DNA of 64,000 nt from Minisyncoccota bacterium (GCA_040879435.1 JBBDKG010000010.1:2019-66018), one strand, 5' to 3'; counted from the first letter of the stretch, positions 25,798 to 42,901 are shown. The notes: a model not told the origin generated them from the sequence alone. Made by a program: numbers and translations.

Positions 25798-26085
25798 CTG
25801 CTTTGGCAGTATCGTCAGTACATATTACAATCTAGCTATGGTATTACAGATCTTCGAACGTATCACCTATATGTGTGTCGGTGCTATCATCGCCATGGTT
25901 GCCTTCGGTCTGTATGTGCATACGAACAAGCAGAATGTTGCACGTATTGTGCAGCAGTCGACCGTATCTCCTGATCACTGCATAGAGCCAGATACTGTGC
26001 TGCATGAAGACGCGGCGGATACGAGAGAGATCTTCTTTGCCGGATGTGCAGGATTCTTCTGAGTCCACTTCCAACGGTTATATAC

Positions 26086-26113: not shown

Positions 26114-27172
26114 CTATTCCGTAGCGGGTGGCGGAGCAGGTTCTTCATCTTCCGGTTCTTCCGGCGGTGGAGGCGATGTCTCCTCTTCTGGTTCCTCTGG
26201 TGGAGGTTCAGGTTCCGCCGCCGCTTCGACCACGACCGTCCGCGTCTTCGTCGCTTCATTGCCTGCTGCGTCTGCGACGCTGTATGTGAGTGTGTATGTA
26301 CCTGCTGTATCGGTATCCACCGTGCCATTTATCGTGATCTGAGCTGTCAGATCGCCATCTTTAGTGTCTGTTGCTGCAGCGCCCGGTTCGTCGTAGGTAT
26401 CGCCTTCAGTGAGAGTTATGGTTGCATCTCCGGCAAGTGTGATCACTGGTGGCGTGGTATCAGCTTGCGGTGTGCTGCCACCGCCCCCACCGCTTGGCGT
26501 GGTGCTTGCTGTAGTGGTCGCGGTGCTGCTTGCGGTCGAGCCACCATCCGATGTTGACGTTGCGGTTGACGTACCGGTCACACCTCCTGAACCGCTGCCT
26601 GAAGATGTCGAGGTGCCGGTCGCAACAGGAGTATTCTTTGACTCCTCTTCATACACGACCTCATCGGGATCAAGGAATCGGCCCACAAGACCGGAGTATG
26701 TTCGCTCAACGATCTTGTTGTTCGCGCCAATACGTCGTTCGATCTCCTGGGTCTCGATGAGCATCTGTCGCTCGGCGTTCACCACTTCCGCAAGCTGTGT
26801 GGTGATGAACGTATCAAGGTCCTTGGTACCAAGCTGCGATTTTGAGACCACCAGTATCTCCTCTCGCACGGCCTCCTGCCACACACCATCGATGACTGCA
26901 TAGGTCTGGTATGAGTAGTGTACGAAGTAGCTGATATCATCTTCTTCAACATACTCAACCTGTACCCGAAAGTCGTGATTATGAATATCGGCCTCAAGGA
27001 TCGCGCGGTTACTCACCTGCCGAACCGTCTCCTCCGACGTGATCACTGCTCCAGCCATTGCATCCCGCACATCCTCATTCGAGGCCATGACCGTCCCGCC
27101 GGACAGGAGAAGGAACACGAAGAGGAGTGTGAACGTGTTGTTATACAGTATGTAGTGGGCAAGTCTTTGCAT
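26114..27172 (-). CDS. secreted surface protein: N-terminal domain, S/T/G-rich linker, bacterial Ig-like (DUF5011/Big-like) domain, Pro/Glu-rich tail
   Basis: Signal/TM at the N-terminus. A long TSTSSGSGSGGVTGTSTATS linker. PVITLAGDATITLTEGDTYDEPGAAATD...GTYTLTYSVADAAGNEATKTRTVVV is a classic Ig-like adhesin repeat. C-terminal PEPPPEEPEEE tail. Confidence 0.65.
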   Translation of the reverse strand: MQRLAHYILYNNTFTLLFVFLLLSGGTVMASNEDVRDAMAGAVITSEETVRQVSNRAILEADIHNHDFRVQVEYVEEDDISYFVHYSYQTYAVIDGVWQEAVREEILVVSKSQLGTKDLDTFITTQLAEVVNAERQMLIETQEIERRIGANNKIVERTYSGLVGRFLDPDEVVYEEESKNTPVATGTSTSSGSGSGGVTGTSTATSTSDGGSTASSTATTTASTTPSGGGGGSTPQADTTPPVITLAGDATITLTEGDTYDEPGAAATDTKDGDLTAQITINGTVDTDTAGTYTLTYSVADAAGNEATKTRTVVVEAAAEPEPPPEEPEEETSPPPPEEPEDEEPAPPPATE

Positions 27173-27231: not shown

Positions 27232-28446
27232 TTAGGTACCGGCCTCAGCCTCCGCTACGAATCGGCAGAACAGCTCGGGTCGCTGTCCTTTTGCACAAGC
27301 GGTCTGCAGCTCCGCCTCGCTCACAAAACGTGAAATAGACGAATACAACCCTTCGTAGCAGATCGTTTGCTCCGTCTCGGTCATTCCACTCTCTTCACAA
27401 AATGCAAATACATGTTCGAAATCACCCGATGATGTGCCGTGCTCTACAAGTCCACCCGCGAGAGAGACGATGCATGCATGGAGCAGTTCCTCGGGAACAG
27501 TCCGACACGATGCAAGCAACTGCTGCTGGTCTTCCTTCGGACGATGCTGCACCATACCGCTGACCGCAACGGTCATGATCGTACTCTGCATGTCTTTCCG
27601 TTTTGCAGTCTGTGCGATCGCGGCGGCCTTTGCCGGATCATGGTTACTCAGACCGTCCACCTTCTGCGCCATCTCGTAGTAGCAGTCCGGCTGCCGCTCA
27701 TATGCTTCGCTGTCGCAGATGCGGAATGGTGATTCACGATCATAGGTAAAGCCATACTCCTCGTCTGACATCCAATCCACGATCACGTTGTATATACCCT
27801 GCCGGCACTCGCTGATCTCGAACGGACTCGCGTCCGGTAGCGACTCACACTGCGCAAGTGGTACATCGACAAAATCTCGGAGCGTCCACTCGCGCGGGTC
27901 AACGAGCGTATCAGCACGAGCTAGTAAAAAGCCATGTCCTGAACCGTGATAGCAGGTTTGCCGCATTCCCGGTGCGGTCGCTTTCAGGCGCTCGTCCATG
28001 TATGCACAGGTCAGAGAAACAAATGCCGGGTCAGGATTGTCCTGTATCAAATGTTCAAAGAAACCGTGATAGAAACCATACCCGCACGCAGTTGCATTCG
28101 GCGGAAATTCGGTGCGGTCCAGGTCACGATGTGTGAGGTAATCAAAGTAGTACGCCATGTCCCCAACACGATGCGCGTGCCGATGGCATCCGGTGTTCGA
28201 GAACGTATCGTATTCACGGTAGATACGCTCGAACACATCAAAGGCGGCCTGCGTTCCGTCAGATACGAAGACGCCGCGGATCACCTCCTGCCAGCAATCG
28301 ATCTTAGCAACCTCGTTCGTATATACCTTCTCACACCTCTCGATAGCTGCAGTTTCGCTATCATGCACCAGAAGAGCCCCGAGGATACCGATCACGAGAA
28401 ACGCTATCAGGATCACCCACCGCACAGTAATGCTATTCAACAACAT
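27232..28446 (-). CDS. Cys/His-rich secreted protein, paralog A of a 4-member family (repeated C-x-H-G-x-G-H-G motifs)
   Basis: Probable start MLLNSITVRWVILIAF (signal anchor). The ORF-track extension upstream is Arg-rich junk. Motifs CHRHAHRVGD, CGYGFYHGFFEH and CYHGSGHGF. About 14 Cys. Confidence 0.6.
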   Translation of the reverse strand: MLLNSITVRWVILIAFLVIGILGALLVHDSETAAIERCEKVYTNEVAKIDCWQEVIRGVFVSDGTQAAFDVFERIYREYDTFSNTGCHRHAHRVGDMAYYFDYLTHRDLDRTEFPPNATACGYGFYHGFFEHLIQDNPDPAFVSLTCAYMDERLKATAPGMRQTCYHGSGHGFLLARADTLVDPREWTLRDFVDVPLAQCESLPDASPFEISECRQGIYNVIVDWMSDEEYGFTYDRESPFRICDSEAYERQPDCYYEMAQKVDGLSNHDPAKAAAIAQTAKRKDMQSTIMTVAVSGMVQHRPKEDQQQLLASCRTVPEELLHACIVSLAGGLVEHGTSSGDFEHVFAFCEESGMTETEQTICYEGLYSSISRFVSEAELQTACAKGQRPELFCRFVAEAEAGT

Positions 28447-29452
28447 GTATCGTACCGGTGAAATAAGAGCGGATATGGTCATGCATGTTCCAGGTTCCCA
28501 CGCGATCGAATGTAAAACTCCATGTTTCTTCCGGCGGAATCGGCTCAAGAGAATCGAACTCCGGATAGATCCCGTGTGTGGGATGCAGGTTCGACGCCGG
28601 CCAGAACGGCCGACCTGTGGTCGTGCTGAATTCGACCGTCGCACCGCGCGCGACGGTAAGCTTTGCAGGCTCGAACCCTTCGTCGGTCAGCACGACTGAT
28701 ACTGTACCGTCAGTAGCTATTGCCGCCTGCTCAGGCGCTGACGCATTCAGTTGGTTGTCAGACAGGAGCATGAGGGTCACATAGAAAGCGGCGGCGGCAC
28801 ACGCAAGTCCAACCGCAACGCTTACAATAAGGTTCGTTCGCGATGGGCGTTTTGGAGTCGTTTCAGATTCTTCTGTGACCGGTGCAGTGTTGCCGGACGT
28901 ATTGCGTCGTGTCCTGATGAACAGAAAAATGCCAACAAGCGAAAGCAATGCCCCCGCAACTACTCCAACACCAAGTGCAAGAAATGAAAACGTTCCTGCG
29001 CCTGAAACATCACCTTGTTGCACGGACAGTGTGAATTCGATCTCGACGAGAGCCTCCCCCTCGTTACTGAATCGTGCAAAGCCGGTATACGTCCCTGCTT
29101 CAGGGAAGGCGATGGTCATCCCGGTAGCACCGAACTCAGCCTTTGCAAGTCCTCCCGCATAGAGTAGCCGGCCATCGTCTTCAAGCCGGAACCAGATGTC
29201 TGTGAACGGTACCTGTGTATCAGTCTCAGCATCATAGAGGTAGAAGTCAAATCGTATCTGCTCACCTGAACGAGGTTCTTCGGGCGAATAGCCGATATCG
29301 ACAAGATAGCCGTCGATGGTCTGTTCGATCGATGCTCCTGACGAGTGTGCAGCTACTCGTTCAACAAACGTGGTGCTGAGAACTGCAAGCGTCACACTTG
29401 TGACGATGCCAACGGTAATAAGAAAAGCTGTACTTATTTGTGTGCGTATCAT
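28433..29452 (-). CDS. membrane-anchored two-domain protein: YtkA/CopC-like beta-sandwich N-domain + cupredoxin-like C-domain
   Basis: 339 aa. N-terminal anchor and a central TM helix. The C-terminal segment FEPAKLTVARGATVEFSTTTGRP...HPTHGIYPEF...GTWNMHDHIRSYFTGTIHV resembles cupredoxin/EfeO-type domains (His ligands present, no Cys). Confidence 0.55.
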   Translation of the reverse strand: MIRTQISTAFLITVGIVTSVTLAVLSTTFVERVAAHSSGASIEQTIDGYLVDIGYSPEEPRSGEQIRFDFYLYDAETDTQVPFTDIWFRLEDDGRLLYAGGLAKAEFGATGMTIAFPEAGTYTGFARFSNEGEALVEIEFTLSVQQGDVSGAGTFSFLALGVGVVAGALLSLVGIFLFIRTRRNTSGNTAPVTEESETTPKRPSRTNLIVSVAVGLACAAAAFYVTLMLLSDNQLNASAPEQAAIATDGTVSVVLTDEGFEPAKLTVARGATVEFSTTTGRPFWPASNLHPTHGIYPEFDSLEPIPPEETWSFTFDRVGTWNMHDHIRSYFTGTIHVVE

Positions 29453-29509: not shown

Positions 29510-30727
29510 TCATTGTCGTGGCACTTCATGCAGACACGCGGCTTTCCACGGCTCAGGTATGCCATTACAAATCTGATAAAATCCGTCGGACTCGACCGTA
29601 AATACATAGGTTGCGTACTGCAACATCTTCTCATAGCACGCTTTGTGTGAATTCGTCGCCTCCGCCGCCTCGCACACACTGAGCGCTTTTGCGATATTGC
29701 GGTTGTCAGTCTCTACTAGGCGTGCCGCCGCGTTCGCAAAGCAGATGCTCTCGTACGGCGAACGCACATTCGGACAAAATGATGTCGCCCACTCGGTGCT
29801 CAAGTTCGCGCCGGCCATCGCAAGGAAGAACACACCGGAAAGACACCGCGTATGTTGCCAATCATTGAAATCAACACGGTCACAAAGATCAACGATCGCT
29901 GATGGATCATCGAGCATCTCCGCAAACGGCGGCCAACCCTCACTGATGCACGAACCGTATTTCGCTCCTTCAAACTGCGAACAGAATGTGTTCACTTCTT
30001 CGGGCGTCTCGACCTCCTTCCCTTCGATAAGGGCGAAGTCCTCAGGCTCGAGCGGCTGGTAGATCTGCATGAACGCGCCATCATAGCAGAGCTGACGTTC
30101 CGCATCTTGGTTGTCGGGATTCCCGTCGACGAGCCGGTCACACAATTCAAGCGAATCATGAATGTCAGCGCCGGTCACATACATCGTCAAATGGCCGAGT
30201 GCGTGAATACAGGTCGCCTCGCCCATACCGGTCGGCTCCCACCCATCGCGCGCCTGACACACGCCCGCAAGTTCTCCTTCGATCTCACGTACATCACGTC
30301 CCTCCATCGAGTCCACACGGAACCGTTCCTGAAATGCTCCGTGGATCGCTCCGTTCGAACAGATACCGAGCGGTGCTTTTGCAATGACATCCTTCCACCG
30401 CTCCGGGTCTTTTGCTGTTTCCTTTGCTGAGAGTTCATGCCCGAGGACATGGCAGTACTGGTACGAAGGATCGAGGTCCTGTACGATCCGGGTGATTGAG
30501 AACGCCTCCAACATACTATATCCATTGTCCATCACCTTCGGAATCTCTTCGTCATAGCAAGATGGCCGATATGCTGCGTCAGCACAGGTCGCCACAATGC
30601 TACGCGCGACCGATTCGTGCGTGTCTGAGGTGTGGGTGAACAATGCCCCCACAAACAGAGCGAGCCCAAGCCCCGCACCGAACACGGTGACCATGAAAAT
30701 ACGGGGATGTCGTTTGAGAATACGCAT
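29510..30727 (-). CDS. Cys/His-rich secreted protein, paralog B
   Basis: 405 aa. N-terminal anchor. Motifs YCHVLGHELS, CSNGAIHGAF and CIHALGHLTMY. About 16 Cys. Confidence 0.6.
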   Translation of the reverse strand: MRILKRHPRIFMVTVFGAGLGLALFVGALFTHTSDTHESVARSIVATCADAAYRPSCYDEEIPKVMDNGYSMLEAFSITRIVQDLDPSYQYCHVLGHELSAKETAKDPERWKDVIAKAPLGICSNGAIHGAFQERFRVDSMEGRDVREIEGELAGVCQARDGWEPTGMGEATCIHALGHLTMYVTGADIHDSLELCDRLVDGNPDNQDAERQLCYDGAFMQIYQPLEPEDFALIEGKEVETPEEVNTFCSQFEGAKYGSCISEGWPPFAEMLDDPSAIVDLCDRVDFNDWQHTRCLSGVFFLAMAGANLSTEWATSFCPNVRSPYESICFANAAARLVETDNRNIAKALSVCEAAEATNSHKACYEKMLQYATYVFTVESDGFYQICNGIPEPWKAACLHEVPRQ

Positions 30728-30776: not shown

Positions 30777-31784
30777 TTAGATGAGATCGTGACTCATAAG
30801 GCAGCGTCTATGGTATTCACCATCGAGCGAGTCACACAAACGCTCCCATTCGTCTTTGAACGCCGGTTGATTCGACACAATCCATACCGCACCTTCGATA
30901 CAGAGCATTTCACCTTCACGATCGGGCATAGTGCCGCATGCAGCAAGCATTTCGTCGACATCATACTCCTGTAGCCCGGCGATCACGTTCCCGGCACCGC
31001 GATAACAGGCCTCCCTGCCCTTTTGGTCCTCGATTTCGCTGCACAAATCGCCAACAGCAGCGTAGTCCTGCCCGTTGAGCGCACTCCACCATGCAGGCTG
31101 TTCAAAGTAGCAGGCTTCGATGTATCGGTCGTCGACCTCCGTACACGGGTGGTGCATACCCCACTCACCAGGTTGACGCATGTCCGCCTGCTGCATGGTC
31201 GCAAAGTTGTATTCCATAAAGACACCGCTCGTACAGCCGCCGATCGGACCCTGCCAATTGAGTCGCATGCACGCCTCAAGCGACTTGTTCAGCTCGTCGT
31301 ACCCGAGTTCAGCAATGACACCATGACCGATCCCGTGCTGACACCCAAGCCCTTTTGGTCCATACGCATCAATGCACGCCTGATCGAGTTCGCTGAGAAT
31401 GGAAAGTCCGTTCTCGATGAGCGCCCGTCCGAAAAAGCTGTGGTAGCAGCCGAACCCATAGCCACTATCGCAAACTGCAACACCCGGTATCCCTTCCGTT
31501 TTGTACAGAGCCTCACCGAAAACGTGCGCATAACTATGCTGCTGTACCTCGCTTAGATGCGAATACACTTCACCAAACCACATATACGCCTTCCGTCCGC
31601 CTTTTTCCGCAACAGCAGCCGCCCAGAACGCTGCAACTTCGGGATCCTCCGCCGGAAGCTCTTTTATTGCCGCTGCTCTGGCCTCGGTCGCTTCGGCAGT
31701 GGCTCCTCGTTCAAGCACCGTCGCACCGATGACGCCTATGGCGACACACGCGAGTATGATACTAATGCGTTGGTACTGTTTCAT
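30777..31784 (-). CDS. Cys/His-rich secreted protein, paralog C
   Basis: 335 aa. N-terminal anchor. Motifs GCYHSFFGRAL, GCQHGIGHGVIAE and GCTSGVFMEY. About 16 Cys. Confidence 0.6.
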   Translation of the reverse strand: MKQYQRISIILACVAIGVIGATVLERGATAEATEARAAAIKELPAEDPEVAAFWAAAVAEKGGRKAYMWFGEVYSHLSEVQQHSYAHVFGEALYKTEGIPGVAVCDSGYGFGCYHSFFGRALIENGLSILSELDQACIDAYGPKGLGCQHGIGHGVIAELGYDELNKSLEACMRLNWQGPIGGCTSGVFMEYNFATMQQADMRQPGEWGMHHPCTEVDDRYIEACYFEQPAWWSALNGQDYAAVGDLCSEIEDQKGREACYRGAGNVIAGLQEYDVDEMLAACGTMPDREGEMLCIEGAVWIVSNQPAFKDEWERLCDSLDGEYHRRCLMSHDLI

Positions 31785-33022
31785 ACGCCGAGAACGTCAG
31801 TGCACTCTGGCTGCCATGAATCCGGAAGCGCAGCACAGAACGACGAACGGTACGCCGGATCGGGGTTATAGTTCATGACATTTCTAATTCCGGTACGATA
31901 GCAGTCGTCGACAAGTGCAGCATCATTGACGAGTGCACAGTAGTTAACAACAGCCTCATACGGTTTTTCTCCACCCCAATACAGTGAGTCCACGGTCGAC
32001 GAGACGCAGTGCGCACGACCGTCCTCCGGTTCGGCCAGAAGACACCACTCATACATGGTCTCCAGATGGTCATCGCGCGGAACTTCCGCCACAAAGTCGC
32101 GACCGGTCGCTATGCCGATGAATTCTTTTCCGAGTCCTCCAAAGCACGCCCATCGGTTCCCGGTCTCTTCCATAGGTATCTCGTCACAAAGCTCAAACGT
32201 CTTCTCGAACACATCAGGTGACGGACGTGCCATATCCGCCCCGAACGCTTCGAACGCGAACGGTGTCATGTATATGTAGCAGATCTGACGGAAGTTCTCA
32301 GGCACGATGTCGTCGGTGCAAAGCCCGAACGGATCGTCGGTCTTTAGATACTCATCGCGGCGGAGACGCCAGTTCTCCGGGTCATGCCCACCCCCGCCGA
32401 TGATCTCCATGATCGCGCCGCCGAAACACTCTACCGCCTCCTGCTGCTGAAACTCGTCGGTACCGAACTTTCCGCACATTGCGATCGTACGGTCCATTTC
32501 ATACGCGTTGTATGCAAGCACTCCGTGTCCAAGTCCATGGAAACACATTGTATATGCACCGTCCCCGCCCGGGGCGTTGTGGCAGGCTTCACGAATTTTG
32601 GACAGTGCTCCCTCGCCGAACTCGAGGAGTGCACCGATCACCATCGTATGCGAACACGCGTTGCGGAAGTCATGTGTGCAGTGCGCCATGCCATCAATTC
32701 CCTCTTGTTCATACATGATCTCTCCCACTTCATGCCCAAGGAGATGCTGGTCGAGTCCGAACGGGAACGGCGCTACCTTCATGAGGCTGAATGCATACAC
32801 TCCACCCTTCTCGGCTGCGATACCTTTGAAGAGCTCAATGAATTCATTGAATGGCGCTTGCTGGTCGGTGAGTGATGCGACCTGTTCTATGTCGCTTTCG
32901 GATACCGTGCCGGGTATGGACGCCATTCCTGATATCGAATCAAAAATGAGTACCGTTGCAAGAACGACCACAAGTACCAATAGACCGCCGACCGCATACT
33001 TCATACTGACACAGTCTACCAA
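31781..33022 (-). CDS. Cys/His-rich secreted protein, paralog D
   Basis: 413 aa. N-terminal anchor. Motifs HLLGHEVGE, CFHGLGHGVLAYN and ECFGGAIMEI. 4-nt overlap with paralog C. Confidence 0.6.
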   Translation of the reverse strand: MVDCVSMKYAVGGLLVLVVVLATVLIFDSISGMASIPGTVSESDIEQVASLTDQQAPFNEFIELFKGIAAEKGGVYAFSLMKVAPFPFGLDQHLLGHEVGEIMYEQEGIDGMAHCTHDFRNACSHTMVIGALLEFGEGALSKIREACHNAPGGDGAYTMCFHGLGHGVLAYNAYEMDRTIAMCGKFGTDEFQQQEAVECFGGAIMEIIGGGGHDPENWRLRRDEYLKTDDPFGLCTDDIVPENFRQICYIYMTPFAFEAFGADMARPSPDVFEKTFELCDEIPMEETGNRWACFGGLGKEFIGIATGRDFVAEVPRDDHLETMYEWCLLAEPEDGRAHCVSSTVDSLYWGGEKPYEAVVNYCALVNDAALVDDCYRTGIRNVMNYNPDPAYRSSFCAALPDSWQPECTDVLGV

Positions 33023-33142: not shown

Positions 33143-34429
33143 ATGAGAACAACTCTCCTCGCCTGTGCGGCAAGCACCGCACTACTGTGGGTGGCGCCGG
33201 CATACGCTGCTTTCGAACATTGTGACACCGTCGAGGAACTCACACTCGATTCATGGCGCTGCGGCGACAAGATGGTGCCACTGTGCCTTGCGCTGATGCC
33301 GTCGGAGAATCCGGATGACCCGGACAACCCAGGCCCAAGCCTCTTCGAACAACACTGTGTGGACGTACATCTGCGCATCCACAAGAGCGCCGAGACGCTC
33401 CGTACGGACTTCTACCGCGAACCGGAAGTGCCGATCGATGGTTCGACGACGTTCGAGGCGGCGCTCGCACTTCCTTCTGACGTCAAGTGGTCGATTGTCG
33501 GCGCGTTCGCCGGCAACAACCAGATGTTGGTCGGCACGGTCGAACCAAAGGACTTTCTCGGCAACATCTTCGGAACGGGGCGCTGCCCCGATACGGACGA
33601 ACGAGTCGTCGGCGGCGCCATCCATGACTGGCGGAATATCACTGACCCGGAGAAGGTCACGTACACACAGACCTCGAAGTCGGGAAACACGATCCAGACG
33701 ATCAGCCAGCTTCGCGAATGGAAACGCACAGGCGTACTCCCCGCGGATACGGCTATCGTCTGCGGTGCCCGATTCTCGGTTCCGGGAAACGAATACCGTC
33801 CGTCCGGCGAAGGCATCGGTGAGCATTACGTGCTCATCGAGGAAGAAAACAAGCGACTTACGGCCGGACGTGTCGATATGCTACGCCAGGGGAAATACCA
33901 GGGCGCAAGCATTGTCGCCGAATACTACTTCAATATCCGGCGGCAGATCCCCAACCTGCGTGTCTACGATGTCGGCATCGGTCCGGATTCGTTCGTCTCT
34001 GCGGGCTTGTTCGTGAAGAACGAAAAGCTCGACGAGAAGCACGAGGCATTTTGCCGGTTCAATCAGGCGATTCAGAAAGCGCTCGACCAGCTCTTTGCTG
34101 GTTCGGTGACCAAGGTCGGTGACAGCTACGTGCTGGACGATGCTGCCGCGGCCGGAGCGTTCCATGATTTCATGCGCGTCCTTCCGTTCGAGAGCACTGA
34201 CATCGCTCTCACCAACTCACTCAAGGGAGCGCTGGAGATCCGGAGCCAGTCCACGGACATCGATCACTACCAGACCTTCCGTGCACGCCTCGATTTCTTG
34301 GGGTTCGCTCGAGAGAATCTCTGGTGGGGTACGAAACCGACCGAGGTGCAGCTTCAGACCTTTAGGGACTGGTTCGATGTCCCCGATGTCGGGTACATCG
34401 ACCCGTGCACCTACGAACCGAAGGCGTGA
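33143..34429 (+). CDS. ABC transporter substrate-binding protein (NMT1/SsuA/TauA-like)
   Basis: Start at the ATG at 33143 preceded by AGGAAAAGGA. Signal peptide MRTTLLACAASTALLWVAPAYAA. Periplasmic-binding-protein fold inferred from overall sequence character. Confidence 0.55.
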   Translation: MRTTLLACAASTALLWVAPAYAAFEHCDTVEELTLDSWRCGDKMVPLCLALMPSENPDDPDNPGPSLFEQHCVDVHLRIHKSAETLRTDFYREPEVPIDGSTTFEAALALPSDVKWSIVGAFAGNNQMLVGTVEPKDFLGNIFGTGRCPDTDERVVGGAIHDWRNITDPEKVTYTQTSKSGNTIQTISQLREWKRTGVLPADTAIVCGARFSVPGNEYRPSGEGIGEHYVLIEEENKRLTAGRVDMLRQGKYQGASIVAEYYFNIRRQIPNLRVYDVGIGPDSFVSAGLFVKNEKLDEKHEAFCRFNQAIQKALDQLFAGSVTKVGDSYVLDDAAAAGAFHDFMRVLPFESTDIALTNSLKGALEIRSQSTDIDHYQTFRARLDFLGFARENLWWGTKPTEVQLQTFRDWFDVPDVGYIDPCTYEPKA

Positions 34430-34530: not shown

Positions 34531-35391
34531 ATGTGGGAACGGAATGCCTCAAAGTTCATGACAGGTGGAGACTCACGCTGGCGTACTGTTGCGGTCGTGT
34601 CCATCCTCATGGTGGGCATCCCGTTACTACTCGTTGAATACTGGGCACACACCGTGTCTGGATTTGCAGCACGCTACTCGCACCCAAGCGCAGTATTCTG
34701 GATACTGGTGAATGATTTCCACCTTATCTGGCCCCGCTTTACAGCCACTGCGTGGCGCGGGATGGTGGGCATTTTGGCCGCAGGCCTTATTGCTTATCCG
34801 CTCGGCGTACTGTTCATATGCATCGGTCCGCTGACGAGATTCTTTTTTCTTGTCACACTCGCGCTCCTTGTAATGCCAAAGCTCAATGTAGCGCTGGTGG
34901 CCCAGTGGACGTACGGATACGGCGAAACGTCGATGTATATCATATCTTTCTGGATCGGCTGCGTCTTTATGTTCGCCAGTGGATTTCTTGGCGCACTCCT
35001 TCTCCATACGTTTCAGCGTGTAGAGAAGGATGCTGATTCGATCTTCCAGGCATCTGCGCTTGATGGCACACGATTCTGGGCACATTACCGTATGGCCATG
35101 CAGATGCTGCGGGCACATCACGTCAGTTCCCTCCAGATTCTGGCTATGGCGATCTGGACCTCTCTCACTTTCTCCGAGGCGATCTCAAGCGTGATCGGAC
35201 TTGGCGAACGTATGCATGACAAGGTCCGCCTTGAAAGCACTATCGGCTACGCTTGGGCGATGTCATTCCTGATCATTCTTCTCGAAGTAGCATCGTTTAT
35301 CGCGATCGCATACATCGGATACCTAGCAAACGTGCGGGTACCGATTATACCGGCTCGCACGAACGACCGAACTCCACCTTCCGCAGAGTAA
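34531..35391 (+). CDS. ABC transporter permease (binding-protein-dependent inner-membrane component)
   Basis: AAGGAGAAGG Shine-Dalgarno before the ATG at 34531. Six hydrophobic segments and an EAA-like loop (FQASALDGTRFWAHYRMAMQML). No ATPase gene adjacent in the window. Confidence 0.6.
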   Translation: MWERNASKFMTGGDSRWRTVAVVSILMVGIPLLLVEYWAHTVSGFAARYSHPSAVFWILVNDFHLIWPRFTATAWRGMVGILAAGLIAYPLGVLFICIGPLTRFFFLVTLALLVMPKLNVALVAQWTYGYGETSMYIISFWIGCVFMFASGFLGALLLHTFQRVEKDADSIFQASALDGTRFWAHYRMAMQMLRAHHVSSLQILAMAIWTSLTFSEAISSVIGLGERMHDKVRLESTIGYAWAMSFLIILLEVASFIAIAYIGYLANVRVPIIPARTNDRTPPSAE

Positions 35392-35406: not shown

Positions 35407-36666
35407 TTATTTACCACCACGCTCCTCGATAAATCGGATACGCTTACGTCCTTCACGACTGAGAGTCCTGACCGATCGACACTGCATCGCCGGTACGAGA
35501 CCGCGCGAAACAGCGTCGGCGTACGTCCGGTCTGGTGAGATGCGCACCGCTTGCATGAATGCATCAATAAATGACCGCTCATCAAACGGACCGCGTGGTA
35601 ACACCCACAGTTCTGCTTGCATTGGTACAGTATCGGTCACCGGTGTGTAGTGAAGTTCAAAATCAGGCATAACAAGATCATGAAACGTACCGATCGCACG
35701 TTCGAACTCAGACGCCTGTAACTGTCCGCCTGGTATTCTGATCCGGTCAAGCTCCCGGCGTCCACGCGTTGCATACCGCCGCTGCCACGGGTCCTCGTGA
35801 TAGGTCGTGTACATAGCAAGGTCACCCATTCTATATCGGAGGAGAGGCGATGGATTATTCTCAGTCCACATCATGGTGACGACGACCTCTCCCTCCTTCC
35901 CGGTCTCTTCGATGACCGTACCTGTGTCGGGATCGATCAGTTCCATGTACAGATGTTCAGATGTTGAGAATATCGTACCTAGCTCCATATCAAATTCATC
36001 GACCGAGTATCCAAGCCGTGTTTCGTGGATCTCGGTCGCCCCGTACAGCGTATACACGAGCGCACCTGGAAATGCTGTTTTCAACTTTACATACTGTGCC
36101 GGTGTCACCCGTTCACCGAACGTGTACACGACCGCGACACCCTCACGGAGTCCGTACCGGTCGAGCTGCTGAATGAACATATCGTACGCAAACAACCAAC
36201 AGCCGACCACATTGATCGGCAAGCCTTCAGCCAATCGCACCGCCGCTCCCACCGCATGCAAGTCTCCTCCAATAAAGGGAATGTTCGGATATTTGAGACG
36301 AAAACCGTTCTCGACCGCATAACTAATGTCTCCAAGACTGAGTACACCTGTGGGCTGTATGCGTTCGAATAACTCATCATATCGCCAGGTGAAGTTCCGC
36401 AATGTCATTAACACCTCACCGCCCGAGGTACCTGACGATGTGCGGATCATGTCGGCGTTCGAAAGGTCGGTGAAGGTTCGTTCGAGTAACGGTACCTGCT
36501 GAAGATCAGCCTTGGTGACGAACGGAAGCGAACGCCAGGCATCCAAAGTATCGACATGGAAGTCAGGTCGCACGCGGTCACCATAGAGGTCACGATAAAA
36601 ACTCGCACGGTCGTTGTGGTATGCGTATTGAAACATCGCATCAAGTTTTGAAAGGTAGTTCAGCAT
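35407..36666 (-). CDS. adenylate-forming enzyme of the PaaK/CapK/coenzyme F390 synthetase family, copy 1
   Basis: 419 aa. AMP-binding motif IRTSSGTSGGEVLM, and YGATE and later conserved blocks of phenylacetate-CoA-ligase-like enzymes. Confidence 0.7.
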   Translation of the reverse strand: MLNYLSKLDAMFQYAYHNDRASFYRDLYGDRVRPDFHVDTLDAWRSLPFVTKADLQQVPLLERTFTDLSNADMIRTSSGTSGGEVLMTLRNFTWRYDELFERIQPTGVLSLGDISYAVENGFRLKYPNIPFIGGDLHAVGAAVRLAEGLPINVVGCWLFAYDMFIQQLDRYGLREGVAVVYTFGERVTPAQYVKLKTAFPGALVYTLYGATEIHETRLGYSVDEFDMELGTIFSTSEHLYMELIDPDTGTVIEETGKEGEVVVTMMWTENNPSPLLRYRMGDLAMYTTYHEDPWQRRYATRGRRELDRIRIPGGQLQASEFERAIGTFHDLVMPDFELHYTPVTDTVPMQAELWVLPRGPFDERSFIDAFMQAVRISPDRTYADAVSRGLVPAMQCRSVRTLSREGRKRIRFIEERGGK

Positions 36667-37478
36667 GGCGTTATGGTATATGCCTTCTGTTGGCTGATCG
36701 TTTCAGTCGGTGCGCATGAGAACGGGAGCCGATACCTACACAATGGCAATACTGACTCATCAACACCGGTGATAAACGTACCATCCTCATTGAACTCCCA
36801 AAGATAGCGACGATCGAGGTGGAACGTGTCCGTCGACCCGAGAAGTGGAAAGGACTGGTATGCAATGACATGCCCCGGAAACAGATGTATCTCAAGTGTG
36901 GTGTTCGCATTAGGTACCGTGCACGACGCGAGATCGATCGGCAACTCATCAACACCAGCAAACGCAACGACAGTCTTGATAATGTCAGTGACGCCACGGC
37001 GCTGAAGTTCATTTTGTAGCGCCGCAACATCAGCTATATGCGCGACCAGAAATGTTGGCTGCGCTTGTCGGACGATCTCAGCTGCAAGCGGCGTGTTGGT
37101 AAATGATTCGCGCGTCACAAAGAGACCATGTCGTCGTGCCTGCAGGTGGAACGGGTACACGAATTGCCACAGACCGGGTGCAAACAACATCACACCACCG
37201 TGTGGTTTATAAAAGCGGTATTGCTCATCAAGCGATCGCCACTGCGGGAATTGGTACTGCGGGATCGGATCAGACAAATCATCATCGTTCCGGATGAATC
37301 GTGACGGAATACGGTTGATGATCGTCCGTTTCAATCGTTGCGCTTCCGCTACGATACGCTGGCTACACGTATCAGGCGTGTCGAGTTCCAATGCGGTCAG
37401 ATCATGGGTGCCATATCGATCATCGAGTACACGTTCGAGGTCTGGCAACGTTGCAGGATACAGTGATTCAGCATGCAT
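36660..37478 (-). CDS. hypothetical protein, translationally coupled partner of adenylating enzyme copy 1
   Basis: 272 aa. Its last codons overlap the downstream enzyme start by 7 nt. No recognisable motif. Confidence 0.5.
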   Translation of the reverse strand: MHAESLYPATLPDLERVLDDRYGTHDLTALELDTPDTCSQRIVAEAQRLKRTIINRIPSRFIRNDDDLSDPIPQYQFPQWRSLDEQYRFYKPHGGVMLFAPGLWQFVYPFHLQARRHGLFVTRESFTNTPLAAEIVRQAQPTFLVAHIADVAALQNELQRRGVTDIIKTVVAFAGVDELPIDLASCTVPNANTTLEIHLFPGHVIAYQSFPLLGSTDTFHLDRRYLWEFNEDGTFITGVDESVLPLCRYRLPFSCAPTETISQQKAYTITPC

Positions 37479-37483
37479 ACACT

Positions 37484-39103
37484 CTACTCTACCGTATAAA
37501 CATCAGCGGACAATGATTTCTGTTCGAGAATAAAAGACGCGAGCGTTTCGATAGGGACTGTGGCCTGGAGTGCCCCCCGATACAACACGAGACCGCTCGC
37601 CGGATCAAGCTCCCCCGCTCGTTCCCGAAGGAAACGGACCGGCTCAGTGTATAGGGTGGCATTGGCAGCAAGAAAGAGTGAGGTGTAGTAGCTACGGGTG
37701 AAGAGCAGTGATTCGATGGGTATCTCCATAACCTCAAAGACATATCGACTGGTCGCCGCCATATCATCGATCCTGCTTATTTCCGTCTCAAACCATGCGC
37801 TTTGCGCCCGCCAGAGCGTCACCATATCGATCAGGCGGTAAACGGTCGCCTCATCCAGGACCCCTGCCGGGTCGTCGGTGGTATTGAGAAATGCAGTGAC
37901 GTGCCCTATATACGCATCGTAGTCTGCCGCATTGAGCACACTGTCTTCCAGACGGATCTTTTGTTCATACGTGCGAGCTTGCGCAAGCGGCTCGGGAAGC
38001 TCCACAACATCATACGATGTGAGGAGTGGTTCAGAGTGAAGTGTCTCAAACATCCACTGCACTGTTCGTACTGTACCGGAATCAAGTCCGTAGTCGATGC
38101 AAAGGTATGGATTCATCTGCTGGTAGACGTACGTGGCCCCGGTCCTGGCAAGTGCAGTTTCGAACGGAGAGGTCTGTTGCGCCGTATCATGAAAAAGAAT
38201 CTCACTGACGGGAGTGAGCCAGAAGACCGGACGACCGCTATATCGTGACGACCGCCAAAAATAGAGATAGGTTGCTGACTGATCGACCGTGCATTCGGCT
38301 TCCGGTATATACACAAGTGGCAACGTATGTGGGTCACGGTCGAGATATGCAACTGGAGCGAACGGACCGGCGTCCACCATCACGGCGCGCAACGCCTCAG
38401 TTCGTTGAGATAGATCTTCCGCCGGTCGCGTCGCACGCACACTATTCTGATTTGTATACAGTGGAATAGCCGCGTCACACGCGCCACGTTCTGCGGCTGG
38501 GAGCAGGCACCGAAGACGCTGCATACTCTGTGCCAGCAGATCATCTGCACGAACATAGATATCTGCTAATGTCCCGGCGATGTACTCAAGCGATGTCGCC
38601 CCGGCCGGTGTGCTCAATTCAATGTCGGGAGCCTCGGTATACATAGCGTCTGAGAGTATCCGAGCGTCACTGCGCAGGAATGCAAGACTGCGCGCAAGCA
38701 GTACATGGTACCGAATTGCTCTCCAGTAACTCGGCTTCGCAATGAACACTCGCCTGGCGTCCTCGAGCTCAGGCAACGAAGTGAGAAACGCCATTGGATA
38801 CAACGCAGCATCAATGATCTCCTGTTCATGTTCGGCATACCGTCCCGTATATACATCGCGACTTTCTGCGAGCGCCTCGAGTGACCGTTCAAGTTCAGTC
38901 ACATTCGTTTCGGGGAGTGCAAGGATCGGGTCATACAGAGTTGTACGCCACACTGCATGTAGCCGCACAGGCACACTCCCGTCACTGTTGTCGAGATGCG
39001 GTTCGTACACGCGTGTAGCTAGAACAAACAATGTGACCGCAATACCGACCATCAATACAGCGAAGAGCGTGTAGCGGATGTTTCTCATATCACTGACGTT
39101 CAT
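37484..39103 (-). CDS. large membrane-anchored extracytoplasmic protein L1, unknown function
   Basis: Preferred start MNVSDMRNIRYTLFAVLMVGIAVTLFV (signal anchor). The ORF-track extension to 39295 overlaps the upstream gene and is Arg/Ser-rich junk. Confidence 0.55.
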   Translation of the reverse strand: MNVSDMRNIRYTLFAVLMVGIAVTLFVLATRVYEPHLDNSDGSVPVRLHAVWRTTLYDPILALPETNVTELERSLEALAESRDVYTGRYAEHEQEIIDAALYPMAFLTSLPELEDARRVFIAKPSYWRAIRYHVLLARSLAFLRSDARILSDAMYTEAPDIELSTPAGATSLEYIAGTLADIYVRADDLLAQSMQRLRCLLPAAERGACDAAIPLYTNQNSVRATRPAEDLSQRTEALRAVMVDAGPFAPVAYLDRDPHTLPLVYIPEAECTVDQSATYLYFWRSSRYSGRPVFWLTPVSEILFHDTAQQTSPFETALARTGATYVYQQMNPYLCIDYGLDSGTVRTVQWMFETLHSEPLLTSYDVVELPEPLAQARTYEQKIRLEDSVLNAADYDAYIGHVTAFLNTTDDPAGVLDEATVYRLIDMVTLWRAQSAWFETEISRIDDMAATSRYVFEVMEIPIESLLFTRSYYTSLFLAANATLYTEPVRFLRERAGELDPASGLVLYRGALQATVPIETLASFILEQKSLSADVYTVE

Positions 39104-40724
39104 GGTATGAAATAAATTCTTTGACGAGTTCCGTAAATGAAGTCTCCTCAATGACCGACGAGAGGTATACGTACGGGGTCTCTGCCCGCGGCAGCGAGAA
39201 CGGTTCGTGAACGTCACCGGGAGATACAGAAGCAAAGAGGAGCAGCCCGAACGGTACAAAGGCACTTCGGGAAAAATAGATGCGGTCGATCTCAACTGCG
39301 GGTATCACACCCGCATCAAGTGACGTGGCATTCGCTGCTTCAGAGACTGCGATACTAAATATCAACAGTCCTCCACCCTCGGTAAGCCGGTCAAATCGTA
39401 GTGCAAAATCTGCAAGCGCGGCATGGTGTTCTTGTGGAATCTCTCCTGTCCCCACATATCGCAGTGCGGTCTCTATATATGCACGTGCACGATCCTCCGC
39501 TACCGCTTCGGCTGTGATTGATTCAAGGGAACGAAGCGATTCGTAGTCAGTTGTCTCTTCAAGATATCCACTCAACTGATGCTCGAGAGCATACTGACGC
39601 ACATCCCGCGTGGTAAGGGCTGCACCAATATCACGCGAAGCGGCGGCGCATGCATAGTGCGAGAACGGCGATGCCGGCACGTACGTGTACCCACGGCCAT
39701 AGAAATAGCGATAGAACGGCACCTCCAGAAAGTCTTCAACACGGATCATCCTCACATCCGACCCCTCCTGTATGAGTGGGTGTGACCGGCTAGGAGATTC
39801 AACAACAACACGCGGGTCGACCTCAGGATTCAGGCACCAACTCCGTTCGAGCGTCACGTGTATGCGTTCATGATCACGACCTGTTTCGGTATCGATCATT
39901 TGATACAACCGTCCAACGTCCTGATACGTTGTATTAGCATTGGATACGGTCTCCGTATCTGACCATACGACCGGATATCGCAGCGCTGTCGCATCACACG
40001 GGGCAAACACGTCTGTCACGCAGCGGGTAAACGAGACGACATGTTGGCCAGCCGACCTGCTGGCGCCACGCAGCAGTTGCAACGTATCAAGTGTATTTTC
40101 CTTTGTGATGCTGTGCCGTTCGGTGACAACACGGATCGTGTCGTATCGGACAAACCAGCGGTACGCAGCTTCATACAAGATCGACTCACGTTGGTACGTG
40201 GCATCAAGACGCGATGCTGCATGAAGATAATCGGTCAGATGGTCCATTGTACTCTCTTCAAGAAACAGGCGACGTGCCTTTTCCGCTGCTCCTGCAGCGC
40301 GTAGCGTATCGCTCGGAAACAATGTATGTCGGACAAGAACCTTGCCGACTATTCCCGGTTCATATTCCGATAGTCGCTCCTGCACATCCTGTAACTGATT
40401 GGCTCCTTGCTCCAGATACTCTATATCGATTCCAGGAAGTGCAATCGATGGATTCACCCGAAGAACACGTTTTGCATACGCAAGCCGTAAGATCGTCATC
40501 TGGTCAGAGCGGCTAAGCGTTGTATCCGTGACAACGACCCCGCCGCGTACCTCGTACAATCGGTTCTGATATGCCACTGTTTCATACACACCCGCATCGT
40601 GGAGCATGTATGAAAATTGCTCAATAGAGCGCTGCTGCACAGCGATACCAAGGCCCCCCACAATAACGGCAAGTACAAGGCCGGTCGCAAACGTGCGTTT
40701 CGAATTTCCAAGAAAAGGCGCCAT
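39090..40724 (-). CDS. large membrane-anchored extracytoplasmic protein L2, unknown function
   Basis: 544 aa. N-terminal anchor MAPFLGNSKRTFATGLVLAVIVGGLGIAV, then a soluble domain. Confidence 0.55.
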   Translation of the reverse strand: MAPFLGNSKRTFATGLVLAVIVGGLGIAVQQRSIEQFSYMLHDAGVYETVAYQNRLYEVRGGVVVTDTTLSRSDQMTILRLAYAKRVLRVNPSIALPGIDIEYLEQGANQLQDVQERLSEYEPGIVGKVLVRHTLFPSDTLRAAGAAEKARRLFLEESTMDHLTDYLHAASRLDATYQRESILYEAAYRWFVRYDTIRVVTERHSITKENTLDTLQLLRGASRSAGQHVVSFTRCVTDVFAPCDATALRYPVVWSDTETVSNANTTYQDVGRLYQMIDTETGRDHERIHVTLERSWCLNPEVDPRVVVESPSRSHPLIQEGSDVRMIRVEDFLEVPFYRYFYGRGYTYVPASPFSHYACAAASRDIGAALTTRDVRQYALEHQLSGYLEETTDYESLRSLESITAEAVAEDRARAYIETALRYVGTGEIPQEHHAALADFALRFDRLTEGGGLLIFSIAVSEAANATSLDAGVIPAVEIDRIYFSRSAFVPFGLLLFASVSPGDVHEPFSLPRAETPYVYLSSVIEETSFTELVKEFISYHERQ

Positions 40725-40789
40725 ATCTGTTGATCGTAAGGCCGGTATACTGGCGGCAAAAGCGACTCTGCTATACTACCCAAACCAGT

Positions 40790-41896
40790 ATGGAAAAGAA
40801 AGACGATCTGCGGCCTCGGTTCCTGACCCTCCTCGAAGACATGTTTGCCCATCCTCCGAATGCTCGTGAGGTAAAACAATATCGCTTTATGCATACATCG
40901 GGAACCACCGGTATCCCGCTCCCCGTTGTTTGTACCGGTCGGCGAGACTGCAATCCGGCATTTTTAGGGCGTGGTACACGCACGCTCATGCTCTTCGGAT
41001 CGAAACCGCTTCGTCTCGATTTTGCACGCACGTTCGCTGACCCGGATACGCCCAAAAGCGACATCATGTTCTGTTCGCTCACTACGTCAGCACAAGAAAA
41101 CGAACGCATATGGCGTGAGTGGCGTCCGGACGCGATCGCCAGTCCTCCATCAGTTCTACTGCGATTTACACGCGCTTGGCCTGAAAACGCACGCGCGCAG
41201 GTTACCAGCGTCATTCTCGCTGGAGAGTTTGTGAGTAAGGTGGTGAGTGACATTATTCACGAGAGATTCCAGCATGCACGTATTGAGAACTACTACCCAG
41301 CGACTGAGACCGGACTCATTGGTACCCAGTGCTCCTTGTGCGCATGGAATGAATTCCATCCGGTCGACGGCGTTACGTTTTCCATACACGAACCGGACGC
41401 AGACGGACGTGGCGACCTTCTGCTCAGCAAGGAAAACCCGGGTGGCATTGCTTTCACCGACTACCGTGTCGGAGATGTTGCGAGCGAATCAAATCACAAT
41501 GGACACCGCGTCATCGTACTATACGGTAGACGGGGGTTTGACTACATCAAGCTTGCTGAGGCATTGCTGGTCAGAGAGGAGTTTGATCGTGTTGCAATGG
41601 AGCTCGAGCGCTATATCGACGACTACCGTGCCGAACTCACGACCCGTATCGAAGACGGTGTACCAAAGCATCACCTCACACTCCAGGTCATCGCAACGCC
41701 TGATGCCACACGAACAGGGCAAGCCCTTGCGGATCATCTCGCTGCCGAAGTGTCGTCCCGGCTTTTTGTCACACCACACTCCACGCTCAAGGATGCTGTG
41801 GAAAACGAAATATTTGCACCGCTCACCGTCTTGCTCGTAGATACGATCACACATACGACAGCGAAACCGCAGCGTCTGATTCGTGTGGACGCTTAG
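40790..41896 (+). CDS. adenylate-forming enzyme of the PaaK/CapK/F390 synthetase family, copy 2
   Basis: Preferred start MEKKDDLRP. AMP-binding motif FMHTSGTTGIPLPVV and a YYPATETG block. About 370 aa. Confidence 0.65.
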   Translation: MEKKDDLRPRFLTLLEDMFAHPPNAREVKQYRFMHTSGTTGIPLPVVCTGRRDCNPAFLGRGTRTLMLFGSKPLRLDFARTFADPDTPKSDIMFCSLTTSAQENERIWREWRPDAIASPPSVLLRFTRAWPENARAQVTSVILAGEFVSKVVSDIIHERFQHARIENYYPATETGLIGTQCSLCAWNEFHPVDGVTFSIHEPDADGRGDLLLSKENPGGIAFTDYRVGDVASESNHNGHRVIVLYGRRGFDYIKLAEALLVREEFDRVAMELERYIDDYRAELTTRIEDGVPKHHLTLQVIATPDATRTGQALADHLAAEVSSRLFVTPHSTLKDAVENEIFAPLTVLLVDTITHTTAKPQRLIRVDA

Positions 41897-41910
41897 CTCC
41901 CTTTCATACT

Positions 41911-42660
41911 ATGGACACCCAGATACTGAATCAATTGATCGAGCAACTCTATACAAGTGAGGAGGGTGGATTGTATCGCACATTCTGGGGCAAAAGACCG
42001 GAAGACTTCTCTACGCTGCCGCTACTCACTCCAGATATTCTCGCCAGCACGTCACTCTACGACCGCACATACAGTCGCGACCAGGGGCTGGTACGGTCCG
42101 TTGCGACGCGTGGCAGTGAGTTTCTCGTAAAGCGCTCGTTCGTTGATATTGCGCACGAGCATCTACCTGTACCATCTGGTTCGCGAGCACTTGTTCTCAC
42201 CACGAATCCAGACGATGCGCTCGAGTACGCACTGTGGTGTTACGAGCATGGTTCGATCCCCTATTATGGCGACGTTGGCAATGTGGAAGTGGCAGTGTTC
42301 TGTGCCGAACACTTCCGCACAAATGTACTCATCACTGACAATGTAACCATTGCATCGCTTATTACTGATGCTCGTATACCGAGTATGATCGAGTTGGTTG
42401 TCATCATTGATCGCGTACACTCTAGTGATCAAACACCGCTTCTTGCGACTGAGCGTGTACTCTACCTGCCTGAAACTGGGTGCCTCGGTCGCATTGAATC
42501 CACCACGGACGGATTGGTGCTACTTGAAGATGGCCGCGTGTTTGCTGAAGTACTGGATGACACACTTGTGGTGACAAAAGCGAACGCGACGACCCCACTG
42601 ATCCGGTACAAAACAGAAATCGCTGCCCGGGTGGAACGCGATACAATCTATCTCGTTTAG
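41911..42660 (+). CDS. hypothetical protein, partner of adenylating enzyme copy 2
   Basis: 249 aa, 14 nt downstream of copy 2 on the same strand. No recognisable motif. Confidence 0.5.
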   Translation: MDTQILNQLIEQLYTSEEGGLYRTFWGKRPEDFSTLPLLTPDILASTSLYDRTYSRDQGLVRSVATRGSEFLVKRSFVDIAHEHLPVPSGSRALVLTTNPDDALEYALWCYEHGSIPYYGDVGNVEVAVFCAEHFRTNVLITDNVTIASLITDARIPSMIELVVIIDRVHSSDQTPLLATERVLYLPETGCLGRIESTTDGLVLLEDGRVFAEVLDDTLVVTKANATTPLIRYKTEIAARVERDTIYLV

Positions 42661-42667
42661 CTCTGTA

Positions 42668-42901
42668 TTATTCTTCGTCGTAGAAACCGCTACAGCTTAC
42701 AAACATGAGCTTATGTTGGTTCTTCTTTTCATTGATGAGATTGCACTGCTTGGTATGCTCATTCGACGCAAGTATTTTTGGCTCCTGCCGCACCAAGAGT
42801 GCTCGAAATTCGTTGTAGTGCACTATCGCAAGATACGCTACTACCGAGAGCGCTACGCCAATTACTATAAGTAGTCTTATATAGAGTGATCGTCGTATCA
42901 T
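42668..42901 (-). CDS. small membrane protein
   Basis: 77 aa, one TM helix. Low confidence. Confidence 0.3.
   Translation of the reverse strand: MIRRSLYIRLLIVIGVALSVVAYLAIVHYNEFRALLVRQEPKILASNEHTKQCNLINEKKNQHKLMFVSCSGFYDEE

Follow-up and report, generated by a model that had tools for sequence, protein, structure and literature searches.

A conserved Paceibacterota gene cluster with two predicted adenylase/pseudo-adenylase modules and candidate cysteine-peptide partners

What is the role of two gene pairs, each coding for an adenylate-forming enzyme and a partner protein (A1 with B1, A2 with B2), that lie on either side of two large membrane-anchored proteins (L1 and L2) in a bacterium of the candidate phyla radiation (CPR)? 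The genes are found in a 64,000-nucleotide stretch of DNA, hereafter the window, from an uncultured member of Candidatus Paceibacterota represented by a metagenome-assembled genome (MAG). In keeping with this origin, the window has a G+C content of about 54%, encodes a short IF-2 and contains many open reading frames (ORFs) without a family match. An earlier note on this DNA described the six genes as an inverted duplication mirrored around L1 and L2, and proposed a system dedicated to the modification of surface proteins or polymers. Our analysis shifts the focus. The region is part of a conserved, undescribed Paceibacterota gene cluster of about 17 kb (window positions 25838−42901), bracketed on both sides by small peptide genes, pep1 and pep2, which are absent from the note. 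As judged from sequence comparison, the unit of interest is a pair of adenylase/pseudo-adenylase modules of ancient origin, with a small Cys-containing peptide linked to each. We consider the chances evenly balanced that the core of the cluster is an A/B module together with its own type of peptide, which the A/B heteromer modifies. The genes on which the argument turns are listed below (loci compared with the window carry the letter L and three digits).

25838..26062, plus strand: pep1, type-1 peptide of 74 residues (translation; called as a gene on L001; orthologues and family alignment)
35407..36666, minus strand: A1, type-1 PaaK-like adenylate-forming enzyme of 419 residues (NCBIfam PaaK, E = 3.9e−15; motifs)
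36660..37478, minus strand: B1, truncated PaaK-like large domain of 272 residues, a pseudo-adenylase (overlaps A1 by 7 nt)
37484..39103, minus strand: L1, 539 residues, with an N-terminal anchor, mostly helical and probably extracytoplasmic (four invariant Cys)
39090..40724, minus strand: L2, 544-residue paralogue of L1 (hhalign against L1, E = 1.5e−9)
40790..41896, plus strand: A2, type-2 PaaK-like adenylate-forming enzyme of 368 residues (hhalign against the A1 family, E = 4.4e−13; motifs)
41911..42660, plus strand: B2, truncated, degenerate PaaK-like partner of A2, 249 residues (hhalign)
42668..42901, minus strand: pep2, type-2 peptide of 77 residues, convergent with B2 across a 7-nt gap (orthologues annotated in L003 and L004)

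For the six larger genes the coordinates in the note are correct, as are the overlaps of B1 with A1 (7 nt) and of L2 with L1 (14 nt) and the divergent gap of 65 bp between L2 and A2. On an identical Logan contig, genes called independently code for A1, B1, L1, L2, A2 and B2 of 419, 272, 539, 544, 368 and 249 residues, respectively, in agreement with the window.

A1 and A2 do fall into the PaaK/F390-synthetase/CapK branch of adenylate-forming enzymes, as had been proposed, and each is tightly coupled to a partner gene. In addition to the NCBIfam PaaK match of A1, a profile of 12 A1 orthologues has as its best match of known structure ClxA of Clostridium cavendishii (9s3l, E = 2.4e−22) and also matches 4r1l (E = 7e−15). 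In the Pfam AMP-binding family, A1 and A2 stay below threshold (18.6 and 22.3 bits against 29.9). Nor are A1 and A2 ordinary phenylacetate-coenzyme A (CoA) ligases, the outcome that the note itself had named as refuting its proposal: A1 scores 55.3 bits on the PaaK equivalog TIGR02155, for which the cut-off is 646.3, identity to PaaK homologues is 23−25%, and no paa-type domain occurs among the 21 further large window ORFs that have a Pfam match. The core motifs of the ANL superfamily (the P-loop (S/T)SGT(S/T)G, YxxTE, GE..T and (R)Y(R)xGD, together with the hinge GR..D..K and, in the C-terminal domain, the catalytic Lys) are kept in A1, A2 and distant homologues. Conserved in A1 are SSGTSG, YGATE, GEVVVT, RYRMGD and C-terminal Lys408; A2 has TSGTTG, YPATE, YRVGD and a C-terminal Lys. 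Based on these motifs, both are predicted to be catalytically active. A segment of the C-terminal domain, R-I/V-S-P-x-R-T-Y-A-x-G-V, is conserved in both types of A protein and not in the aligned PaaK sequences. Neither A nor B proteins have a signal peptide. Orthologues of A2 were found in L003, L020 and L021, and a scan of the genome collection with the A1 family returned one true locus only, L006.

The partner proteins B1 and B2, for which Pfam and NCBIfam yield no match, had been considered devoid of recognisable domains, with carrier, acyltransferase or ATP-grasp proteins suggested as possible relatives. Profile comparisons show instead that they are degenerate paralogues of the adenylases. 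The B1 fold is that of the large N-terminal domain of PaaK/ANL enzymes without the P-loop or the C-terminal domain; hhalign links the B1 family to the A family with E = 4.5e−12 and the B2 type to the A family with E = 7.8e−19. B1 and B2 share no similarity detectable by BLAST and are homologous at the level of profiles only (B2 type against the B1 family, E = 6.8e−10). Both proteins stop after the large domain and have no Gly/Ser/Thr-rich loop at the P-loop position; lacking the P-loop and the small C-terminal domain, B proteins cannot adenylate. B2 retains an N-terminal segment of A1 (FYR..YG...LPF.TK.DL) that is not present in A2. Exhaustive searching recovered 95 representatives of the B1 family, of about 230−290 residues except for one repetitive protein of 2,009 residues, whereas a word-index search recovered B1 alone. 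In that long protein (P0047), which was left out of the B1-family alignments, 22 separate stretches match residues 124−169 of B1, so that it consists of repeats of a B1-like segment. Taken together, B is a PaaK-like pseudo-enzyme family that is not represented in Pfam or NCBIfam. In every locus examined the B and A genes overlap or nearly abut, which we take as a sign that A and B form a stoichiometric heteromer.

The peptides are small and share the C-terminal motif F-x-x-C-x-G-aromatic-aromatic, in which F, C and G are invariant in the alignment. All 12 aligned peptides have an N-terminal hydrophobic segment and a second, upstream Cys. In pep1, the hydrophobic segment is accompanied by the invariant Cys48 and an acidic linker, and the C-terminus reads ...REIFFAGCAGFF-stop, with a Cys as the fifth-last residue; orthologues occupy the same end of the cluster in L002, L003, L005, L006, L008 and L009. 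The C-terminus of pep2 reads ...KLMFVSCSGFYDEE-stop. The gene caller missed pep2 on the contig and called a spurious 53-residue ORF on the plus strand at 42713−42874; an annotated 76-residue orthologue lies beside B2 in L003 and L004. In a six-frame search of all loci, the motif matched these small ORFs only, and did so in each locus that had enough flanking DNA. Although the search did not impose a stop at that position, the stop codon follows exactly after Cys+4 in all 14 distinct type-1 peptides, whereas type-2 peptides carry one to three extra residues after Cys+4 (DEE, E or Q). In L013, both B-A pairs and an L-like gene each have behind them a small gene for a peptide of 68−74 residues, and all of these peptides end in ...(I/V)FFxxCGG(F/I/V)(Y/F). 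A metagenome scan based on the peptide motif alone added four more loci, in which all four peptides end in CGGFF-stop; three of the four adjoin genes for Ig-like, C-family (see below) or L-family proteins. Two other readings of the peptides were tried and rejected: F-A-G-C is not a lipobox, as no hydrophobic signal segment precedes the Cys, and there is no C-terminal sorting signal, as a C-terminal membrane segment is missing.

In four distant lineages, with A proteins only 27−31% identical to those of the window, peptide genes are found next to A/B pairs. The order is B-A-pep, in two copies, in L013; TctC-A-B-pep as well as DctP-DctP-pep2-A2-B2-TctC in L018−L020; and pep2-A2-B2 in L021−L023, type-2 peptides being encoded directly upstream of A2-B2 in L020 and L021. 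The peptide next to TctC-A-B in L018−L020 has 54 residues, a single Cys and no membrane segment, and looks like a soluble precursor. Types and numbers go together: peptides ending at Cys+4 accompany B-A (type-1) modules, the tailed type-2 peptides occur only with A2-B2 (type-2) modules, and the ratio of peptides to A/B pairs is 2:2 in L003 as in the window, and 1:1 in L002, L005, L006, L008 and L009 (seven loci). Hence the combination that characterises ribosomally synthesized and post-translationally modified peptides (RiPPs), a short precursor with a conserved core linked to a modifying enzyme, is present here. It is the small Cys-peptide, rather than L1/L2 or a gene for polymer synthesis, that travels with A/B across distant genomes.

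How do these modules fit the arrangement in the window? By sequence, A1 and A2 are homologous, and their divergence appears ancient (22% identity; BLAST E = 0.004; hhalign of A2 against the A1 family, E = 4.4e−13). With B1 and B2 linked by profiles only, there was no recent inverted duplication. The map A-B-L-L-A-B is not a mirror image either, as B1 precedes A1 in the direction of transcription but A2 precedes B2. Loci with an A1 identity of 48−66% keep three blocks, namely B1-A1; a convergently oriented ABC permease gene with a gene for a secreted protein; and a run of the membrane-anchored, Cys/His-rich proteins C1−C4, alongside one protein with a cupredoxin domain and one Ig-like surface protein. 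L2-L1 lies upstream of B1 in L003, L005 and L008, so that these loci and the window have L2-L1-B1-A1 in common, the genes overlapping or almost touching. L002 and L006 have a single L homologue on the other strand, which in L002 is a few genes away from B1; the site upstream of B1 in L002 is filled by a 657-codon gene (7214−9187) with no BLAST similarity to L1 or L2. Only in L003, the closest relative, does A2-B2 adjoin L2; it is absent from that position in L002, L005, L006, L008 and L009. Therefore, the mirror image is not the conserved feature, and the arrangement around L1 and L2 as the note saw it is conserved in L003 and only there. Promoter and terminator matches around A2, B2 and pep2 were no commoner than expected by chance, and an Rfam scan found tRNAs only, with no riboswitch pointing to a ligand.

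L1 and L2 are paralogues (hhalign E = 1.5e−9 over 438 columns), each with one N-terminal hydrophobic segment. Because of this anchor and four Cys that are invariant in the alignment, they probably face outward. The note was right that they have no recognisable domains: neither Pfam nor a profile search of PDB revealed a relative, the L1/L2 profile search recovered four proteins only, and the AlphaFold2 model of L1 is poor (pLDDT 50.9). L-like genes also occur in L010, L013 and L017. In L013 and L017 they are followed by peptide genes, which suggests a part for L proteins in binding or processing the peptide, not a role as the substrate.

The remaining genes of the cluster lie between pep1 and A1:

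26114..27172, minus strand: surface protein with an Ig-like domain (Pfam Bact_surface_Ig-like, E = 2.3e−26)
27232..28446, minus strand: C4, Cys/His-rich membrane-anchored paralogue of C1−C3 (without a Pfam or NCBIfam family)
28433..29452, minus strand: membrane protein with a C-terminal cupredoxin-like domain (Pfam Cupredoxin_1, E = 3.5e−5, below the cut-off)
29510..30727, minus strand: C3, Cys/His-rich membrane-anchored paralogue (C-family comparison)
30777..31784, minus strand: C2, Cys/His-rich membrane-anchored paralogue (two HxxxH motifs, about 12 conserved Cys)
31781..33004, minus strand: C1, Cys/His-rich membrane-anchored paralogue (C-family comparison)
33143..34429, plus strand: secreted or anchored protein of 428 residues, upstream of the permease (gene call; conserved in related loci; no family match)
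34531..35391, plus strand: ABC-type permease, convergent with A1 (PF00528, BPD_transp_1, in the orthologues of L005 and L009)

The Ig-like surface protein gene adjoins pep1 in all related loci, and the cupredoxin-like membrane protein, with which C1−C4 are interleaved, is likewise conserved in related loci. C1−C4 (27232−33004, minus strand) have about 12 conserved Cys, the HxxxH motifs QHxxAH and CxHGxGHG and, in addition, GGCxSGVFMEY; the C-family profile has no match in PDB. Homologues of C2 are found beside A/B pairs in L013, L018, L020 and L021, and also in L017, a short contig on which A/B pairs are missing. A role of C1−C4 in handling a metal, possibly copper, is conceivable. Elsewhere in the window, a 900-residue protein with an N-terminal CopC (copper-resistance) domain is encoded at 58014−60716 (minus strand), a second copper-related gene beside that of the cupredoxin protein. 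The permease and the 428-residue secreted protein upstream of it (33143−35391, plus strand) are conserved in all close relatives; from its position only, the latter is presumed to be a solute-binding protein. The window permease itself is below Pfam detection, and no ATPase gene was found near it. No credible match to C1−C4, the peptides, the permease or the presumed solute-binding protein emerged from Pfam or NCBIfam, even at E-values up to 1, and PADLOC returned no hits. Glycosyltransferase, polymerase or flippase domains were not found in the scanned ORFs in and around the cluster, some small window ORFs being unscanned.

Several further families accompany the modules. In L018−L023 and on the contig of P0045, several orphan binding proteins of the TctC, DctP and NMT1 types share operons with A/B pairs and peptides, and the membrane components of TTT/TRAP transporters are absent beside them. 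A family of 136−161 residues with an N-terminal membrane segment is encoded upstream of A/B pairs in three distant lineages (L013, 9044−9986; L020, 1896−2769; L021, 259−714); three of its five members end in ...FGNPL, and the family was not found in the window. Next to pep2 are the genes for three paralogous surface proteins with a common C-terminal domain (42916−45178 and 45000−48830, both minus strand), one of which has a long YYQ(G/S) repeat, followed by a Thr/Ser-rich surface protein of 1276 residues. Homologues of the surface proteins at 42916−48830 flank the cluster in L002, L003 and L017.

What could the modules do? The core module consists of a PaaK-type A, predicted to be active, translationally coupled to its paralogue B, and the window carries two anciently diverged types, B1-A1 and A2-B2, which would work with pep1 and pep2, respectively. 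The A/B heteromer would have one active site, B helping to hold the peptide. Using ATP, A may adenylate a carboxylate and, like ClxA and NatL2, hand the acyl group on to a nucleophile that is not CoA. In PaaK, the second half-reaction is the attack of a thiol on the acyl-adenylate. In the chemistry that we prefer, A would activate the C-terminal carboxylate of the peptide itself, and the invariant Cys four residues upstream would capture the acyl group, giving a five-residue thiolactone ring. The ring geometry would be that of staphylococcal autoinducing peptides, with ATP in place of AgrB-type proteolysis. The product may then be exported by way of its N-terminal signal or anchor and meet L1/L2, C1−C4, the cupredoxin protein and the solute-binding proteins outside the cell. 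We favour the thiolactone because every one of the 14 type-1 peptides ends at Cys+4 and the geometry is that of the AgrD rule, but hold this choice of chemistry tentatively.

The closest relatives of known structure are consistent with a direct transfer. The ATP-dependent ligase ClxA joins an aromatic acid directly to an amine or phenol, in an amide or ester bond, and ClxA, NatL2 and AjiA1 pass the acyl-adenylate straight to the amine or phenol nucleophile (PMC12519233). These enzymes of benzoxazole biosynthesis (9s3l, 6siw−6siy, 6wuq) share their adenylation motifs with A1. However, they belong to secondary-metabolite clusters and work singly, on small aromatic acids, whereas A is paired with B and a peptide, and, unlike in their clusters, no aminohydroxybenzoate-pathway or amidohydrolase genes are present here. 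NatL2 was examined as a precedent for an A/B heterodimer and discarded: the two chains of 6siw are near-identical forms of one protein. PaaK (TIGR02155; 2y27, 2y4n, 4r1l) is similar to A1 at the E-value given above, but there is no paa operon here.

For the peptides, the agr system is the nearest comparison. In agr, AgrB supplies the energy for ring closure by cleaving the tail of AgrD, and the acidic tail of AgrD sits where type-2 peptides have a short, mostly acidic tail. The ring Cys of AgrD autoinducing peptides is always the fifth residue from the C-terminus (PMC5007282). AgrD and the peptides described here are both small, ribosomal and equipped with an N-terminal membrane-associating segment, and in both the Cys, fifth from the end of the ring-forming part, is followed first by small residues and then by hydrophobic or aromatic ones. 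As type-1 peptides end at Cys+4, their ring closure would need activation by ATP, not the peptide-bond cleavage performed by AgrB. No AgrB-like membrane protease or AgrC/AgrA two-component pair was matched by Pfam or NCBIfam among the cluster proteins. The A proteins belong to the PaaK-like branch of the ANL superfamily and are neither PaaK, nor in a CapK context, nor components of agr. Inactive paralogues of adenylating enzymes are known from RiPP maturases, namely the E1-like partner of YcaO cyclodehydratases and MccB acting on MccA. The logic is alike, with a conserved-core precursor, an ATP-using enzyme and a dead homologous domain possibly serving recognition. The enzyme superfamily here, however, is ANL/PaaK and not E1 or YcaO, no RRE domain was detected, and most precursors have a Sec-type N-terminal segment, not a classical leader.

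Some observations weigh against modification of the peptide by A/B and against the thiolactone in particular. The peptides are linked to A/B by synteny only, and since the related loci come from close lineages or from MAGs without taxonomy, part of that synteny may reflect shared ancestry. In the available DNA, two B-A pairs of L021 and the pair of L011 (a short contig) have no peptide gene, and in the window pep1 is 9 kb away from A1. The five-residue ring from Cys to C-terminus fits type-2 peptides only after trimming. The charge distribution leaves the topology of the peptide ambiguous, and co-translational export of the C-terminus would put it out of reach of a cytoplasmic enzyme. Finally, the orphan TctC/DctP/NMT1 binding proteins in the operons could hint at a small organic acid as the substrate.

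This last point leads to an alternative with the same actors, in which A activates a small, probably aromatic or other organic acid, taken up via the co-clustered binding proteins and permease, and transfers the acyl group to the Cys or an amine of the peptide, so that the product is acylated and not cyclised. Such a role is the usual one for PaaK-type enzymes, which normally activate free aryl or alkyl acids (benzoic acids in the case of ClxA and NatL2), and it would accommodate both the type-2 peptides, whose C-terminus is not at Cys+4, and the binding proteins and ABC permease that are co-transcribed with or adjacent to A/B in window-type loci and in L018−L023. Yet acylation leaves unexplained why the stop lies exactly four residues after the Cys in 14 of 14 type-1 peptides, the cluster has no enzymes to supply the acid, and the window has no ABC ATPase next to the permease; we regard it as unlikely. 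Somewhat more improbable in our estimate is that A/B are metabolic acid-thiol ligases that scavenge acids, with the peptides and L1/L2 merely neighbours. The weak but consistent similarity to PaaK and DVU_1553-type CoA ligases, the many carboxylate-type binding proteins beside the pairs and the existence of pairs with no visible peptide are what one would then expect. But the score of A1 (55 against 646 bits) is far under the PaaK equivalog cut-off, its closest solved relative makes amide and ester bonds directly, with no CoA intermediate in the reaction as reported, catabolic CoA ligases are not characterised by an obligate pseudo-enzyme partner, no catabolic genes follow in the cluster, and peptide and module types and counts co-vary. 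The proposal of the earlier note that the adenylases act on L1/L2 or a surface polymer, by modification or ligation, has become very improbable. In its favour, L2-L1-B1-A1 is kept in four loci including the window, and L or L-like genes are present in five others (nearby in L002 and L006; also L010, L013 and L017). Against it, the L proteins, with their four invariant Cys, lie outside the cytoplasm and neither A nor B carries a signal peptide, which makes direct modification of mature L1/L2 unlikely; A/B pairs occur with no L gene nearby in L011 and L018−L023, L copy number does not follow that of A/B, polymer-synthesis genes were not found in the scanned ORFs, and in L013 and L017 the L genes are themselves followed by peptide genes.

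Returning to the peptide-modifying A/B module, we found no match to a described system, as the note had also reported: neither the A+B+peptide unit nor the larger cluster with L and C genes has a counterpart in Pfam, NCBIfam or PADLOC, and the full-text searches made for such a system, on PaaK/ANL enzymes with RiPP precursors and on RiPPs of Patescibacteria, returned nothing relevant. CPR bacteria have small genomes with many unannotated genes, and their sensing and their interactions with hosts and neighbours are largely uncharted. The cluster unites six families without curated annotation: a new clade of PaaK, the two types of peptides, and B, L and C. Read as ATP-dependent peptide maturation by an adenylating enzyme and its inactive paralogue, the system has a real chance of representing a new class of peptides. 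The most specific form of this proposal, a new ribosomal peptide class in Paceibacterota and related uncultured bacteria whose F-x-x-C-x-G core is turned into an ATP-made, AgrB-independent thiolactone with the ring size of staphylococcal autoinducing peptides, which after export is read or bound by the co-clustered surface proteins (L, C, cupredoxin and orphan binding proteins), is for now rather doubtful; it would amount to a system for signalling or for handling metals where none was known. If the pairs do modify the peptides, this would, as far as we could find, be the first maturation route with an ANL/PaaK enzyme and a pseudo-enzyme partner. It might then also provide a second, ATP-driven way to autoinducer-like cyclic peptides.

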